A DNA stretch of 32,947 bases. Origin: a virus. The notes under the pieces are model-generated. The model saw only the letters and a program-made list of their open reading frames with translations. It was not told the origin of the DNA and made no database searches. The translations under genes were made by a program, and so were the position numbers. The stretch is taken from UHGV virus genome UHGV-0038968; one strand, written 5' to 3'. Of this stretch, positions 215 through 11,052 are shown one piece after another; the first letter of the stretch is position 1, and the number at the start of each line of letters is the position of its first letter.

Positions 215-1272
215 ATCGTATACCCACTGATAAATATTGATGCAGAAAAACCCGTGATTGATGTGCCGTTCGGGTTCACGTCATAAAAAATTGATTGTGG
301 GGTTGATAGCAATAATTCTGCAAACTGACCATAAACCCCTATGCCAAAATTCCCAACATACCCCCCGATTGATACGTACCCGACACCGCTATTGGTGGAT
401 GCAACATCAATAATTAAACCGCCCGATTTCTCATCACCTGATGTTGCATAGATGGAACCATAGCCACTCACTTTCCTTGCATTTTTGGGAACAATCGCAG
501 CAATAGATAACTCAGTTAGCGTATTAACTGTTGCGGTTGTTGTTATTGCTGTCTGACGGTCAATATTAATAACCCGCCCGTGCTGCGTTCCTGCTTTAAA
601 TTTTGACTCTGAAATACCCCAAACACTCACCAGTGCACTGGCGGTATAGTCAGGTGGTAACGATGAACCACCATAAATCTCTGGTGCTTCAGCGGAGGTT
701 GCATTTACCGCAAGCAATGACGACATATCAGTAGTCGGATTATAAATCGCATACAAAGCAACAAATCCTGTTGCCGGAACTGTGCCCGTATCCATCCCGC
801 CTGCCCCTGTTTTCATCAGGTCTACAGATTTATTGAAATTACTCAATCGATACTGGCGTCCATCGCCATCTTCAACAATCAACTCATCGGCTGAAAATGT
901 CGCAGTAGCACTCGCGGCAGCCACTGACATTCTGGCATTTCGCGACTGCCCAACAACGCCAGAAAATGATTCTCTCAATTGAAGGTTTTCGAGAGCTGTT
1001 TTCACCGTGCCATCCGATTTGATATCGCCAAACGGATTTTTGCGGCTTAACAGCAGCGCACGAAGCGCGGTAAGCAGCTGGTCATGCCGCCCCTTCTCCA
1101 GGCTGGCACCGGATTCCTCCACCACGCTGCAAAGCTCTTCCTGCAACATGTCAAAGTAGTCATCATCCAGATCGGTGGCAGGCGTGCCGGTCTGGGGGTT
1201 ACCACGGGTAAAACCGTTCTTACCCGCGCCGAACTTATCCTTCTGCGCGGTTTTCGTGTCTATGCGATGCAT
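211..1272 (-). CDS. Phage tail fiber protein
   Basis: 353 aa; N-terminus [47 protein letters not shown] typical of enterobacterial prophage tail fibers; Gly/Ser-rich C-terminal region; last gene of the tail module. Confidence 0.75.
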
Positions 1273-6334: not shown

Positions 6335-6865
6335 TTAGCGAGTCAGAAACAACGAATCTTTATACTTTTGCTGTTGTTCATTTAAATACTTAGCTGTTTC
6401 ATCGCTGGCAAATGGAAATATTACCGTATTTTTAGGCATGGTAATTTCTTTTTTGTCCAGCGTCAGAGTAAACATAGGAACATACTGAGCAGAGTAACGC
6501 ACCGCAGAAACGAGCTCTAGTTTAGACTCTTCAACAACACTTAAATTATCCAGGCTAACTTTCTCTTCATCTTTTTTCTTTGACGCATTTAAAGTTTTTA
6601 TTACTTTATTTAATTTCTCCTGAAAATCCTCCTTAAAGTTTTCAGGATTGCCGTCGACAACAAGAATCTGTTCACCCTGATTATCTGGAAAAATAATCTT
6701 TGCACTTATCAATTTATTTTCTTTATAAACATCACCAAGTTTTATGGCTCCTCCAGATAACTGAATAATATGTTCATCTTTAAAGGAGATGTTGCCAGAG
6801 ATTATGAGAGATGAAAAAACAGCCGCTGCTCCAAGAATTACACTTGCTGTGATATAGCCTTTCAT
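6335..6865 (-). CDS. Hypothetical exported or membrane-anchored protein (moron), unknown function
   Basis: 176 aa; hydrophobic N-terminus MKGYITASVILGAAAVFSSLIISG; Lys/Glu-rich; visibly AT-rich unlike flanking tail genes; own promoter-like and terminator elements. Confidence 0.7.
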   Translation of the reverse strand: MKGYITASVILGAAAVFSSLIISGNISFKDEHIIQLSGGAIKLGDVYKENKLISAKIIFPDNQGEQILVVDGNPENFKEDFQEKLNKVIKTLNASKKKDEEKVSLDNLSVVEESKLELVSAVRYSAQYVPMFTLTLDKKEITMPKNTVIFPFASDETAKYLNEQQQKYKDSLFLTR

Positions 6866-6956: not shown

Positions 6957-8789
6957 CTACCAAAATCGGGTATAGCCAACATCGTGATTTATATCAATGC
7001 CACTGGAGCGTGTTTCCGTAACCCGCATACCTGGTGGCATATTTATAAATGATACCTTGATCTCACCATCAACTTTTGGCGCAGAAGCTTTGTTAATCAT
7101 GAAGGGATTCGGGCCTGTGGCATCGGAGGCGTTGTTTGACTGAGCCAGATCTACCGCCGGATAAGGTGTGTATCCCCGCGCCGGTATTCCCGTCCCATAA
7201 GCATCATAAGCACCCGCGCCCCACTGCGCAGAGTTAATGGCATCGACCGTGTCACCGGAACTGTCGGTAAACCACTCAATAATTGGCTTCAGCTTATCCC
7301 ACATATCCTGAAACCACTTAACAACCGGTCCCCAGTTATTGATCACCATCCCCAGCGGCGACCAGGCAAAAACCTTCTTCAGAAGTTCCCAGCCAGCCTC
7401 AAAATAAGGACCAATGGTTTCCCAGAGCTTCTTAAAATAAGGTCCGACAACATCCCAGTTAGTGATAATTAATCCCGCAGCCAGAGCAATCGCCGTCGCA
7501 ATCATGCCAATCGGCGTCATCGACATAATCCTGCTGACAATACTGATGGCACTGCCCACGCCCATCAATCCCAGTTTCAGAATCGCAAGACCGGCAGCAA
7601 GCCCGACGACGCCGCGAATAACCCGGGGATTTTCATCCGCAAACTTCGTGAATTTTTCCCCTAACTCCCCCAGCCACTGCGTGATGTTCTTAGCGTCACC
7701 AGAAAATGCGCCGCCAATAGCCGCAAGGCCGTTAGTTGCGGTCCCCGTCATTGCCTCCCACAGGTTGGACAGCGTACCAAGCTGAGCCTGAACACGTTTA
7801 TTCAGGCTGGCCTGTTTATTCATCTTCTGCTGGATCTGATCGTAGCCATCCTTTCCTTTATCGATTAGTGCATTGACCACCTGAAGGGTTTCGGCATCAT
7901 CACCAAATATTGCCTTAAGTACACCGGTTCGCTTAACGTCGGTCAGTTTTCGCAGCTTTGCCAGTTGCCTGAACATGTTATCAAGACCGCCAAAACTCCC
8001 TTTGCCATCAGTAAAATCGAGCTGTACCCCGAGTTTCTGGCGGGCCATGATTTTATTGACGTCCCTGATTTTCTTAACGCTTAATCCGGACTGGATAACT
8101 TTTCGCAGGGCATTACCTGCCGACTCCCCGTTCATCCCCATCTGATCCATCATGACACTGATGGGGGCAAGACTCTGTGCAGCCTGAAGACCGTCCTTAT
8201 TCACCATCTTCAGAACAGAGCTGGTTTTAGTGAAGAATGACAGCATGTTGGTATCGTCCACGCCCAGATAAAACGCCTTCTGAATTGTGTCGAACAGCCC
8301 CATCATGTCTTCTGAGGCCGTTCCGGTAGCATCCTGCATCTTTGCGGCAAACTCAGCAGCCGCTTCCGGTGTTTTTTTCAGTTGTACCGCAAGATAAGCT
8401 GTCGCTTTACCCACACCACCAAGAATGTTTTCTGCCGGGATCCCCTGACGCACCAGCATCTGCATCATGTTCTGGAAATCAGCCGTTGTACCGGGTAGCT
8501 GGTTACCCAGGCCAATAGCCAGTTTATTGATGTCCTGAAAGCTCTTTCCAACCTCGCCGTTCGCATCCATCATGGCGACTTTCAGCCCGGTGGCGGCGTT
8601 TTCCTGATCAGCATAAGATTTCAGGGAAAGCGTCAGACCCGCTGCCAGTCCGCCACCAAGCGCCAGCCCACCCTGTGACGCTTCTTCCGCCTGGCGTTTA
8701 AATCCCCGGATTTTCTTTTGCATTTTCGACAGCGCGGGAGAAAGCCTGTCGACACCGGTGATCAACGCCTTAAGCTCAAATTCAGCCAT
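6957..8789 (-). CDS. Tail tape measure protein
   Basis: 610 aa; Ala/Gly-rich with hydrophobic segments; follows the frameshifted chaperone pair. Confidence 0.8.
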   Translation of the reverse strand: MAEFELKALITGVDRLSPALSKMQKKIRGFKRQAEEASQGGLALGGGLAAGLTLSLKSYADQENAATGLKVAMMDANGEVGKSFQDINKLAIGLGNQLPGTTADFQNMMQMLVRQGIPAENILGGVGKATAYLAVQLKKTPEAAAEFAAKMQDATGTASEDMMGLFDTIQKAFYLGVDDTNMLSFFTKTSSVLKMVNKDGLQAAQSLAPISVMMDQMGMNGESAGNALRKVIQSGLSVKKIRDVNKIMARQKLGVQLDFTDGKGSFGGLDNMFRQLAKLRKLTDVKRTGVLKAIFGDDAETLQVVNALIDKGKDGYDQIQQKMNKQASLNKRVQAQLGTLSNLWEAMTGTATNGLAAIGGAFSGDAKNITQWLGELGEKFTKFADENPRVIRGVVGLAAGLAILKLGLMGVGSAISIVSRIMSMTPIGMIATAIALAAGLIITNWDVVGPYFKKLWETIGPYFEAGWELLKKVFAWSPLGMVINNWGPVVKWFQDMWDKLKPIIEWFTDSSGDTVDAINSAQWGAGAYDAYGTGIPARGYTPYPAVDLAQSNNASDATGPNPFMINKASAPKVDGEIKVSFINMPPGMRVTETRSSGIDINHDVGYTRFW

Positions 8790-9200
8790 GTGTGCGTTTC
8801 TCCTGCTCTATCCTGTTTGCCTGACTGACCAGCAAGGGAATTTCACTGATCGGCATATTCAGCAATTCGAAGGGATTAATGCGCCAGTAGCTGGCGCAGT
8901 CAAAGAAGCGATCAGTGAGGTATTCAGCCGTCAGGCCTGGAGGAAAAAACCAGCCACAAGCCACGCCGCTGCATTCAGGTCTGCCGGAGACATCTGGTCG
9001 ACAGAGCTTTGCGGCACTTTCGCCAGCCGCACAATGTATTTCGACACCACATGCGCCAGAAGTCTGACGGACTCATCCTGATTCATCTGGTAGGGATACC
9101 CCAGCTCGCGGACATCCTTCCCGGTGGGTTCATCAAACTCCAGTACGGAGAGTGTCTCACCATGAGCGATAATCGGTTTCTTTAACTCAAGCTCTTTCAT
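8782..9200 (-). CDS. Tail assembly chaperone, long form made by programmed -1 frameshift
   Basis: The -1 frame stays open from the slippery site to 8782 (track ORF 8782..8964), ending next to the tape measure start; same arrangement as lambda G/GT. Confidence 0.55.
8931..9200 (-). CDS. Tail assembly chaperone, short form
   Basis: 89 aa; between tail tube and tape measure; carries a slippery heptamer near its 3' end. Confidence 0.7.
   Translation of the reverse strand: MKELELKKPIIAHGETLSVLEFDEPTGKDVRELGYPYQMNQDESVRLLAHVVSKYIVRLAKVPQSSVDQMSPADLNAAAWLVAGFFLQA
8943..8949 (-). promoter_or_regulatory. Slippery heptanucleotide T_TTT_TTC for -1 ribosomal frameshifting
   Basis: Minus-strand reading GCT GGT TTT TTC CTC in the zero frame; plus-strand 8943-8949 is GAAAAAA. 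Confidence 0.6.
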
Positions 9201-9556
9201 TACTGGTAATCCCCTTCTTCACCGTGGAACTCAAGATCAACCGTGCCTTCTTCGGCATTATGGTTCGCTTCTCCGTGCAGCCAGGCGGACGACAATACAT
9301 AGACCTGACCGTTCGCCAGCTCGGCAGTGATGGTCATCTCATCAGACGAGGTGATTTTGCTCACCGGAAAATTCTTCGGCACCTTGAAGGTCCCTTTGAC
9401 ATAAGGCGCACGGTGAGTTTCCTTGCGGTCCACTGAACCGTCCAGGCCGATGATGTCATCATTGACCGTCCTGTTCATGGGCACCTCAATGCCGCCGGTC
9501 AGCGATAGCTGCTGACCGTCAATTTTGAAATAACAGGTTCCCCCGATACGGGCCAT
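9200..9556 (-). CDS. Tail tube protein (Mu gpM-like)
   Basis: 118 aa; directly downstream of the sheath gene. Confidence 0.7.
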   Translation of the reverse strand: MARIGGTCYFKIDGQQLSLTGGIEVPMNRTVNDDIIGLDGSVDRKETHRAPYVKGTFKVPKNFPVSKITSSDEMTITAELANGQVYVLSSAWLHGEANHNAEEGTVDLEFHGEEGDYQ

Positions 9557-11052
9557 TATGCAGACTCCTCTGAATACTGAAGACGGAACTGGTTAACCAC
9601 GGCAAAAACACGCAACTGGTTAACATAGTCAGGCGGGAACAGCGTGTTCAGGCGGTTCGGATCGCTGGCATCACGCTCCACAACCAGGTACTGCTTAAAC
9701 AGTTCGTAGTTTTCCACGATCCCCGCACGCTCAAGCTGACGGTAGGTTGCCAGCAGTTCCCCTTTGATTACCGCCGGGGTGACAATCGCCTGACCGGGAC
9801 CAAAGCGGGTACCGTCGCTGGCAAGCTTGTGACGCCCGTACTTACTGGTAATGACGGATTTCAGTTTGCGCAGTACATACGCACTGGTATGCAGCGTCTC
9901 GCTGTCGAGGTAGCTGTTATCCGCAACCCCGTAAGCATTTTTCCTGTACGTGGTGACATCACGCTGAATGCGCAGCACCCCGCTTTCGACATACGCCGTT
10001 GCCACGCCATGAGACAGCAGGGTCTGCTGCTCGGTCATCGTGAACCGTTTCCCCTTCGGCGCAGGCAGCATACCCACCAGCTCACCGGTCTGCGTGGGAC
10101 GTGCCGGATCGTTGCGGATAAACACCGCTGCGCGGGCGGTACGGCTTGCCGCCAGCTCGTCGGCAGGCGTCTGGGTCTCTTTTTCGTACCCCGCCAGGGT
10201 GATGTGCTGCTGGTTAAACTGGTCACCTGCGTTCACCAGTTCTGACAGTGTGCCGGTCTTTGCCGTATACACATGACCATACAGCTGACGCGCATAGCTC
10301 CAGCGACCGCTGGTATCGTTCATCTCGGTCACCAGCGTGTTAACGGAGGCCGTGTCGTTGAACGGCAGACCGATATAATCAAACGGCTCATCCGCCATTG
10401 CAGCCACCGCGCCGGTGAGAACCGGAGCGCCCGTTCCGGCGCTCCCCGTCGCCACGGCAATCTGTACGCCCGCTGGCAGCACTTCGCCCCCACCAAAGCC
10501 GTAGTAATTGAGGCTGACAGGAATTTCATTCCCGCAAAGCCCCTTATGACGCGCGGTCAGTGTGACCACGCCTGCCGAAGATGAAGCCGTAAACGGCAGG
10601 GTCGGAACGGCATTGATGGCATCCTGGATACTGCTGGCAATCGTCGTGACGTTATCGCCGTTGGTCACCGGAGCCTGCACGCGGGTACGTCCCACATAGA
10701 CATTCACCGTGCCGCTTTCGGTTGCTTCCCCGGTCACCGTCAGCGTAACCGTTGCCGCCGCGCCTGTGGCTTCCGGAACGGCAATCACATACAGCTCACC
10801 AAACGGGTCGGTCTGGCGATAAGCCTCGACCATACGCGCCAGCTGACTTCCCGCACCACAAATCTGGCGTGCATAGTCTGCCGATGGCATCAGCACCAGA
10901 CTGTTGGCAACAATCTCTGCACCGTTATTGGCATGACCAATCAGCAGCGATGCTCCGCTGTCCTGTGCAGTATTCGCCGCCGAGTTATCCATTTCCGCAT
11001 AAAAAATCGGAACCAGCGTATTCGACGGAATGGTGTTAAAGCTTGTCGTCAT
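9556..11052 (-). CDS. Contractile tail sheath protein (Mu gpL-like)
   Basis: 498 aa; size and position typical of sheath proteins. Confidence 0.85.
   Translation of the reverse strand: MTTSFNTIPSNTLVPIFYAEMDNSAANTAQDSGASLLIGHANNGAEIVANSLVLMPSADYARQICGAGSQLARMVEAYRQTDPFGELYVIAVPEATGAAATVTLTVTGEATESGTVNVYVGRTRVQAPVTNGDNVTTIASSIQDAINAVPTLPFTASSSAGVVTLTARHKGLCGNEIPVSLNYYGFGGGEVLPAGVQIAVATGSAGTGAPVLTGAVAAMADEPFDYIGLPFNDTASVNTLVTEMNDTSGRWSYARQLYGHVYTAKTGTLSELVNAGDQFNQQHITLAGYEKETQTPADELAASRTARAAVFIRNDPARPTQTGELVGMLPAPKGKRFTMTEQQTLLSHGVATAYVESGVLRIQRDVTTYRKNAYGVADNSYLDSETLHTSAYVLRKLKSVITSKYGRHKLASDGTRFGPGQAIVTPAVIKGELLATYRQLERAGIVENYELFKQYLVVERDASDPNRLNTLFPPDYVNQLRVFAVVNQFRLQYSEESA

Follow-up and report, generated by a model that had tools for sequence, protein, structure and literature searches.

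The P2 proteins gpE and gpE+E′ are related by a translational −1 frameshift (Christie et al. 2002, as cited in PMC3091744 and PMC5009743), and the slip site T_TTT_TTG is annotated in the genome record NC_001895. The corresponding proteins of lambda, gpG and gpGT, are produced from the heptamer G_GGA_AAG (Levin et al. 1993; Xu et al. 2004, 2013, 2014, as cited in PMC5009743), and in the account given in PMC5009743 the tape measure protein is the presumed partner of the G part, while the T part is presumed to bring in the tail tube subunit. For the tail assembly chaperone gp41 of Mu a −2 frameshift has been reported (Xu et al. 2004, as cited in PMC2628397). Here we suggest, with a probability of about 90%, that an SfV-like prophage likewise uses programmed −1 ribosomal frameshifting, of the P2 E/E+E′ (lambda G/GT) type, to read the gene for its tail assembly chaperone.

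The window, that is, the whole stretch of 32,947 nucleotides which was analysed, derives from a Shigella/E. coli SfV/SfII-like prophage with a Mu-like contractile tail. According to Pfam and PHROG matches the tail genes are arranged in the order sheath, tube, chaperone, and tape measure, all on the minus strand. The contractile-tail context is given by the sheath gene (498 aa, 9556–11052; Pfam PF04984, PF17482, and PF17481; phrog_165), and homologues of Mu gp44, gp47, and gp48 are further Mu-like tail parts within the window. The tube gene (118 aa, 9200–9556; Pfam PF10618 Tail_tube, E = 2.4e-33; phrog_185, tail tube) ends in the motif TAATG, in which its stop codon TAA (9202–9200) shares one nucleotide with the ATG of the chaperone gene. 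The tape measure gene (610 aa, 6957–8789; Pfam PF10145; phrog_28 and phrog_17727, tape measure) is preceded by a candidate ribosome binding site, AGGAG, at 8804–8800.

The zero-frame chaperone ORF, the putative analogue of G and gpE, extends on the minus strand from 9200 to 8931 and codes for 89 aa, as stated in the preliminary description of this DNA. In RefSeq the protein is named "phage tail assembly protein", and it matches Pfam PF10109 Phage_TAC_7 ("E, or 41 or 14") with 55.3 bits at a cutoff of 25, residues 4–86 being aligned to positions 2–78 of the 79 model positions. The end of this match coincides exactly with the slip site. The 3′ end of the gene reads GCT GGT TTT TTC CTC CAG GCC TGA, with the TGA at 8933–8931. 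The slippery heptamer T_TTT_TTC, which the preliminary description had placed at 8943–8949 of the plus strand, is present there and is in phase for a −1 slip: it starts at index 251 of the ORF, which is 2 mod 3, and thus has the X_XXY_YYZ phase with the zero-frame codons GG[T TTT TTC]. The P-site codon would be TTT and the A-site codon TTC, and after a −1 slip both tRNAs would be able to re-pair with TTT. Nine nucleotides separate the heptamer from the TGA of the chaperone; the earlier figure of 12–18 nt before the stop is right when position 8931, the final base of the ORF, is taken as the end point.

The −1 frame is open on the minus strand from 9072 to 8782 (96 codons), in agreement with the earlier claim that it stays open to 8782 at the start of the tape measure gene. 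The part downstream of the slip site, the putative analogue of T and E′, comprises 53 codons (8782–8943) and matches phrog_32181 (E = 4e-40). Its first codon is CCT (8943–8941), in which C8943 is read for a second time, and its stop codon TGA (8784–8782) and the ATG of the tape measure gene (8789–8787) overlap by 8 nt (ATGGCTGA). The predicted fusion, analogous to GT and E+E′, has 139 aa and a mass of 15.6 kDa (join of 9200–8943 and 8943–8782, minus strand) and reads WLVAGFF|PPGLTAEY around its junction; the tryptic junction peptide, VPQSSVDQMSPADLNAAAWLVAGFFPPGLTAEYLTDR, is long. The extension protein is conserved in relatives with the motif A..W...P....A.RI. In eight diverged phages the length of the fusion is steady at 138–140 aa, whereas the zero-frame product ranges from 89 to 111 aa, and the zero-frame tails past the heptamer measure 6 to 81 nt in the related loci and are without conservation.

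The closest analogue is the P2 E/E+E′ pair of contractile-tailed phages rather than lambda G/GT itself. P2 is a contractile-tailed phage with the same gene order of sheath, tube, chaperone, and tape measure, and P2 E+E′ also matches PF10109 (47.8 bits, residues 7–85), the match spanning the same region as that of the chaperone in the window. The slip codons are homologous and lie at the same residue position, GGT TTT TTG in P2 and GGT TTT TTC in the window. The products are of similar size (91 and 142 aa in P2, 89 and 139 aa in the window), and in both the stop codon of the fusion and the start of the tape measure gene overlap by 8 nt. A downstream structure is unreported for P2 and none was found in the window. 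The two systems differ in the last base of the heptamer, which is C or T in the SfV-like family and G in P2, so that the A-site codon is UUC for Phe instead of UUG for Leu, and the tail module outside the chaperone is Mu-like in the window (498-aa sheath), unlike that of P2. Gene order, the PF10109 match, and the P2-homologous slip position together support the proposal of the preliminary description that a frameshift of the G/GT type backs the annotation of the tail module.

For the extension the relationship to P2 E′ is fainter. Pfam PF06528 (Phage_P2_GpE), which scores 76.3 bits on P2, gave no match to the 53-aa extension at E ≤ 1, and hhalign of the fusion alignment against P2 E+E′ returned E = 0.022 at a probability of 2%. 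A profile built from 70 T sequences matched P2 E′ collinearly with 9.0 bits (E = 5.7e-5 at Z = 1). This targeted profile match and the collinearity hint, weakly, at homology of the two extensions. Neither the fusion from the window nor P2 E+E′ has a match in NCBIfam, a sequence search of the PDB with the fusion returned nothing meaningful, and a single-sequence structure model had a pLDDT of 46, too low for use.

Lambda G/GT occupies the same place, flanked by the major tail gene and the tape measure gene, and has the same presumed roles, but there is no detectable sequence similarity, and the lambda tail is non-contractile, its heptamer is a different one, and its T extension is far longer. 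Mu gp41 shares the Pfam family name PF10109 ("E, or 41 or 14") and similar sheath and tube neighbours. Mu has an unannotated gap of ∼144 nt before its tape measure gene, and our T-domain profile matches the ORF in this gap (E = 7.6e-6 at Z = 1). In Mu, however, the T-like ORF lies in the +1/−2 frame, the zero-frame protein has 144 aa, and a T-run is missing, whereas the SfV-like family uses the −1 frame. A frameshift of the Mu gp41 type (−2) was therefore rejected for our locus, since both the window and 77 of 79 relatives have the extension in the −1 frame.

The heptamer by itself is not beyond chance. The window contains 26 copies of TTTTTTY where 15 are expected, and in its ORFs of at least 100 aa an in-phase XXXYYYZ heptamer occurs about once per 385 codons (35 heptamers). 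Only two of these 35 enter a −1 frame that outlasts the zero-frame stop. The finding exceeds chance because of where the heptamer lies in the gene and because relatives have conserved it. With respect to its type, few motifs induce as much shifting in E. coli as U_UU.Y, and heptamers made up of pyrimidines only are preferred (PMC4066793).

Conservation was assessed with 80 related loci from many genera of Gamma- and Betaproteobacteria, which were retrieved by alignment of the neighbouring tube gene, so that the chaperone played no part in their selection. When the frame of the G-domain profile is taken as zero, the T-domain profile is placed in the −1 frame in 77 of 79 loci; the remaining two belong to decayed prophages of endosymbiont genomes or MAGs. 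An in-phase XXXYYYZ heptamer lies within the overlap in every one of the 72 distinct −1 loci, although these loci share phylogeny and their counts are not independent events. The heptamer is TTTTTTC in 40 loci, TTTTTTT in 24, CCCAAAG in 7, and CCCTTTG in 1. Thus, the −1 ORF, for which the preliminary description had considered a lack of conservation in relatives as counter-evidence, is present together with an in-phase heptamer in 72 distinct loci. The T-run heptamers (64 of 72) are found at the same Phe-Phe codons. In the Gilliamella/Schmidhempelia clade the T-run is broken (TTC TTY) and a new heptamer, C_CCA_AAG, is located 9 nt downstream; in Rhodoferax C_CCT_TTG takes the place of the T-run.

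Synonymous codon choice is restricted at the slip site. Where Gly precedes Phe-Phe, it is encoded by GGT in 50 of 50 cases compared to 32% GGT in the rest of the gene, and throughout the T-run loci the codon before Phe-Phe ends with T, and TTT is used for the first Phe (64/64). Past the zero-frame stop the variable sites are distributed over the three −1 codon positions as 28/48, 18/49, and 40/49 (chi-square p = 3.7e-5), and the substitution pattern in this apparent gap after the chaperone stop fits the codon periodicity of the −1 frame. An allele with the two reading frames fused in frame was found in none of the 970 copies in complete E. coli genomes, which hints, indirectly, that both products may be needed.

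The same fusion could be obtained if the RNA polymerase, instead of the ribosome, slipped in the T-run and added one U, yielding an in-frame mRNA for an identical protein (…GFFPPGL…). The site is indeed homopolymeric, with T6 in the window, T7 in SfIV/ST64B-type loci, and T8 in locus L044. Furthermore, a one-base insertion at the T-run, as it is present in three assemblies, yields exactly the 139-aa fusion, and mass spectrometry of the fusion is unable to separate the transcriptional from the ribosomal mechanism. Nevertheless, we consider transcriptional slippage to be improbable. Productive transcriptional slippage in bacteria takes place at runs of about nine or more A or T, and the T6 of the window is short for this. 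In addition, the phase of the T-run always fits the tandem re-pairing of two tRNAs, including the third base of the preceding codon, a constraint which the polymerase does not need, and the clades without the T-run carry C_CCA_AAG or C_CCT_TTG, which are classic ribosomal slip sites and not homopolymers. Finally, the homologous site of P2 is described as a site of translational frameshifting in the account given in PMC3091744.

Still less probable is that the −1 ORF forms a small gene in its own right, which would code for 60 aa and start at GTG 8964. An ORF at 8782–8964 does begin with GTG, it is listed as "hypothetical protein" in vB_EcoM-689R6 and on about 998 contigs, and the −1 ORF makes up phrog_32181. 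On the contrary, ATG, GTG, and TTG are all absent from the −1 frame upstream of the T domain in 49 of the 72 distinct loci, and none of the 72 has a start codon with an SD-like motif for the −1 ORF. In phiP27 only 21 nt of open −1 frame precede the heptamer, and the conservation of the protein starts right at the heptamer and not at GTG 8964. The notion that the heptamer is a mere conserved Phe-Phe pair and that an untranslated spacer of 141 nt separates chaperone and tape measure is hardly tenable: in-phase heptamers and TTTTTTY are frequent, as noted above, and RefSeq has no annotation in the 141-nt gap, but the supposed spacer shows −1-frame codon periodicity, encodes a protein conserved down to about 35–40% identity, and is always open in the −1 frame to the tape measure start, the synonymous positions of the heptamer are fixed, and other heptamers replace a lost T-run.

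For the programmed ribosomal frameshift we propose the following course of events, in which slippage itself, its efficiency, and the functions of the proteins are inferred. The majority of the ribosomes would reach the TGA of the chaperone gene and release the 89-aa protein. A minority would pause at T_TTT_TTC with tRNA-Phe on TTT in the P site and on TTC in the A site; both tRNAs could then slip back by one base onto TTT TTT, and translation would proceed through 53 further codons of the −1 frame to give the 139-aa fusion, which would end within the start region of the tape measure gene. By analogy to lambda G/GT and P2 E/E+E′, the shared N-terminal part may form a coat on the tape measure protein, and the tube protein may be recruited by the C-terminal extension; the slip efficiency would fix the ratio of the two chaperone products, neither of which is expected in the virion.

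The apparent signal for slippage would be the heptamer alone, as reported for P2, with neither an RNA structure nor an SD-like stimulator detectable. A downstream stimulatory RNA structure, which the preliminary description had suggested to search for, was looked for by folding and not found: the region downstream of the heptamer folds no better than shuffled sequence, with z = +0.71 (50 nt) and −1.63 (90 nt), and also +0.44. Similarly, 60 nt were folded for 60 distinct loci, and no conserved hairpin is present 5–9 nt after the heptamer (mean z = −0.45). The hairpin UGCGCCAGCUACUGGCGCA (8898–8880) of SfV-type sequences was rejected as a stimulator; it lies 44 nt downstream, falls on the conserved CASYWR codons, and is missing in SfIV-type sequences. 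Likewise rejected was an upstream SD-like stimulator, the best anti-SD duplex having about −2.7 kcal/mol in the window and family means of about −2.5 to −2.8 kcal/mol. Since no stimulatory element was found, the slip efficiency is possibly low.

As the mechanism is a textbook one, known from lambda G/GT and P2 E/E+E′, the biology is unsurprising. Yet the probable, conserved frameshift is a largely unannotated case of the P2 E/E+E′ kind. In all RefSeq and GenBank records inspected the longer product is absent or its second part is split off as "hypothetical protein", which results in the 141-nt gap, and none of these records contains the join. Therefore, the annotations lack a tail assembly protein that is probably essential. 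The word "frameshift" does not occur in the genome papers of SfI and SfIV, and we found no paper in the open-access literature that ties TTTTTTC to phage tails. Of 5426 complete E. coli genomes, 1085 carry this prophage tail module.

The set of 72 loci represents a natural series of slip-site variants within one protein family and could be used for asking how the identity of the heptamer alone sets the efficiency of frameshifting in bacteria. We further speculate that within this one family of homologous chaperones recoding signals were replaced repeatedly (T_TTT_TTC, T_TTT_TTT, C_CCA_AAG, C_CCT_TTG, and the −2 site of Mu) while access to the T domain was kept, and that the heptamer alone tunes the G:GT ratio of each module; this idea is tentative and we regard it as rather doubtful. 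If true, such module-wise tuning would mean that the G:GT ratio is set without RNA stimulators. SfV-type loci combine TTTTTTC with a 9-nt zero-frame tail and SfIV/ST64B-type loci combine TTTTTTT with a 63-nt tail. The type of heptamer seems to go with the chaperone/tape-measure module, and the SfV-type and SfIV/ST64B-type modules are found interchanged beside an identical tube gene.

The genes in this part of the window all lie on the minus strand, in the order tail sheath (498 aa, 11052–9556), tail tube (118 aa, 9556–9200), tail assembly chaperone (89 aa, 9200–8931, Pfam PF10109), and tape measure protein (610 aa, 8789–6957), with a 1-nt overlap at both the sheath/tube and the tube/chaperone junction (TAATG at the latter). 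The 89-aa ORF ends with ...GCT GGT TTT TTC CTC CAG GCC TGA, in which TTTTTTC (8949–8943, minus strand) stands in X_XXY_YYZ phase and is followed after a 9-nt spacing by the stop codon at 8933–8931. The −1 frame is free of stops from 9072 to a TGA at 8784–8782 (minus strand), and this TGA and the tape measure ATG at 8789–8787 overlap within ATGGCTGA. When re-read in the sequence, the phase, the stop distance, and the open −1 frame were as the preliminary description had put them, and its coordinates are correct. By conceptual translation, a −1 slip at the heptamer would yield a fusion of 139 aa, ...WLVAGFF-PPGLTAEYLTDRFFDCASYWRINPFELLNMPISEIPLLVSQANRIEQEKRTHG. We suggest that the site directs a functional programmed −1 ribosomal frameshift (probability about 0.9), of the type found in the E/E+E′ genes of phage P2. 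Upon the one-base backward slip, tRNA-Phe in the P and A sites would re-pair on UUU; measurements in E. coli place both U_UU.Y and all-pyrimidine heptamers among the motifs prone to shifting (PMC4066793).

The heptamer by itself is not beyond chance, and the case is made by its context and by comparison. The window contains 26 TTTTTTY motifs (15 expected), and there is one in-phase XXXYYYZ heptamer in about every 385 codons; just two of 35 such in-phase heptamers open into a −1 frame extending beyond the stop of the zero frame. We compared nine phage records, namely four close relatives and five whose fusion is only 38–44% identical to that of the window. All carry an in-phase T_TTT_TTY at the same Phe-Phe codons and a −1 frame reaching the tape measure start. 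The predicted fusion measures 138–140 aa throughout, and the zero-frame product ranges between 89 and 111 aa, with unrelated C-terminal tails.

For a selection independent of the chaperone, 80 loci were fetched via the neighbouring tube protein, and profiles of the chaperone (G part) and of the extension (T part) were searched against every stop-to-stop segment. Of 79 loci, 77 have the T part in frame −1 with respect to the G part. An Arsenophonus endosymbiont and a Pantoea bathycoeliae symbiont MAG with disrupted genes depart from this, as does one truncated locus. An in-phase slippery heptamer is present in the overlap of all 72 distinct −1 loci (TTTTTTC 40, TTTTTTT 24, CCCAAAG 7, CCCTTTG 1). 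In the seven CCCAAAG loci, from Gilliamella and Schmidhempelia (L050–L055 and L057, around 2090–2110), the T-run is broken (ATG TTC TTY) and C_CCA_AAG, the most efficient E. coli slip motif (Sharma et al., PMC4066793), lies 9 nt downstream in the same phase; C_CCT_TTG is the heptamer of a Rhodoferax locus (L076:2120–2126). Within a single chaperone family, one slip site has given way to another, a change that would be difficult to account for without selection on frameshifting itself.

The heptamer is fixed at its synonymous positions: the Gly codon preceding Phe-Phe is GGT in 50 of 50 cases, compared with 32% GGT elsewhere in the gene, and the first Phe codon of the T-run loci is always TTT (64/64). 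Past the zero-frame stop, 12 distinct SfV-type sequences (TTTTTTC with a 9-nt zero-frame tail), aligned as nucleotides without gaps, have variable sites at −1-frame codon positions 1, 2, and 3 in the proportions 28/48, 18/49, and 40/49 (chi-square p = 3.7e-5), the distribution expected of a frame that is translated. Upstream of the conserved domain, ATG, GTG, or TTG is absent from the −1 frame in 49 of 72 loci, and a −1-frame start with an SD-like motif occurs in none of the 72. The extension would therefore be reachable solely from the chaperone frame. Frame relation, heptamer, coding signal, and lack of an independent start together support the earlier interpretation as a programmed frameshift.

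The same fusion protein would arise by transcriptional slippage at the T-run. This is unlikely, however, as the run is short (T6), strictly conserved in codon phase, and replaced in some clades by heptamers that are not homopolymers. No stimulator of a ribosomal slip was found: folds downstream of the heptamer did not surpass those of shuffled sequence, either in the window (z = +0.44 and +0.71) or across 60 loci (mean z = −0.45), and anti-SD pairing upstream of the heptamer is weak. This lack of a stimulator agrees with the report for P2 and relatives (PMC3091744). An 8-bp hairpin, UGCGCCAGCUACUGGCGCA (8880–8898, minus strand), begins 44 nt downstream of the heptamer over the conserved CASYWR codons, too far for a classical stimulator; it is found in SfV-type loci and missing from SfIV-type loci (TTTTTTT, 63-nt tail).

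In-frame fused copies do exist in databases. The exact 139-aa fusion is present as a called protein in KDU40741.1 ("mu-like prophage FluMu gp41 family protein") and STK26617.1. Three assemblies carry a 1-nt insertion, an extra G or T, at the slip site (L094, L095, and L096, each 1741–1760, aligned to window 8943–8952): GCTGGGTTTTTTCC in JNMU01000013.1 and an ENA metagenome contig, and GGTTTTTTTCC in UGDR01000001.1. The insertion joins chaperone and extension into an ORF identical to the predicted frameshift product. One of these assemblies has many other broken genes, another is the metagenome contig with 3.7x coverage, and the fused form occurs in none of 970 copies in complete E. coli genomes. 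Homopolymer or other errors, or rare defective alleles, probably account for the fused copies; the normal state is two separate frames.

The closest known system is P2, where the PF10109 domain likewise ends at the slip site, the heptamer T_TTT_TTG lies at homologous GGT TTT TTG codons, the products have 91 and 142 aa, and the tape measure gene is overlapped by 8 nt as in the window. In our case the 89-aa protein matches PF10109 ("Phage tail assembly chaperone proteins, E, or 41 or 14") with 55.3 bits (cutoff 25), and the match stops at residue 86, right where the heptamer encodes Phe-Phe. The extension did not reach a match to Pfam PF06528 and, when searched with a targeted profile, resembles P2 E′ only weakly (E 5.7e-5 at Z = 1). 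Membership in the P2 family is thus firm for the N-terminal domain and the recoding architecture, and no more than suggestive for the extension. Mu shares the Pfam family, but its T-like ORF is in the +1/−2 frame, in line with the −2 shift reported (PMC2628397), and here SfV-like phages differ. This ORF (…GPEWALSLPLSRFFRHCQQAK…; L092:3553–4140, gp41 to gp42) lies within an unannotated 144-nt gap. The zero-frame end of Mu gp41 (…LATEMYDMAVA…) resembles the start of the T domain, suggesting that the shift point moved downstream in Mu.

In lambda G/GT, binding to the tape measure is the task of the N-terminal part, and the extension brings in the tube subunit (PMC5009743); by analogy, the proteins of the window may have the same roles. 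The SfIV tube protein is 100% identical to that of the window, the chaperone fusion 42%, and the tape measure 23%. DNA similarity with SfIV ends at the tube stop codon, a mosaic junction at window 9200 (L003:2898). Chaperone and tape measure are thus swapped as one module while the tube gene next to them stays unchanged, which fits the roles suggested by lambda.

The kind of frameshift is well known; the SfV-like case is new and largely unannotated. The region shares 99.7% identity with Escherichia phage vB_EcoM-689R6, 99.5% with Shigella phage SfII, 99.0% with SfI, and 98.8% with SfV, and is found in 1085 of 5426 complete E. coli genomes. Mu-like genes for tail and baseplate accompany an HK97-type capsid and terminase in this phage. 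No join is annotated in the GenBank/RefSeq records inspected (SfV, SfIV, vB_EcoM-689R6, EPP-1, AH07, F1055, ST64B, phiP27, BgVeeders33, and E. coli H10407). In E. coli RefSeq genomes (e.g., L010:970–1112, NC_017633.1) the sole PGAP call here is the 89-aa "phage tail assembly protein", with a gap of 141 nt in place of the −1 ORF; elsewhere the ORF is called a 60–63-aa "hypothetical protein" (about 1000 contigs). The extension matches phrog_32181, a family of unknown function (E 4e-40), which evidently arose from wrongly calling this −1 ORF as a gene of its own.

A 176-aa ORF (6335–6865, minus strand) separates the tape measure gene from the DNA-circulation (Mu gpN-like) gene; it has no Pfam match, and phrog_5485 (unknown function) is its sole match. 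Another in-phase heptamer, G_GGT_TTT (247–253, minus strand), stands 12 codons ahead of the stop of a 353-aa ORF (211–1272) without a Pfam match; the −1 frame after it is open for 65 codons beyond the stop and may simply be the frame of the next gene.
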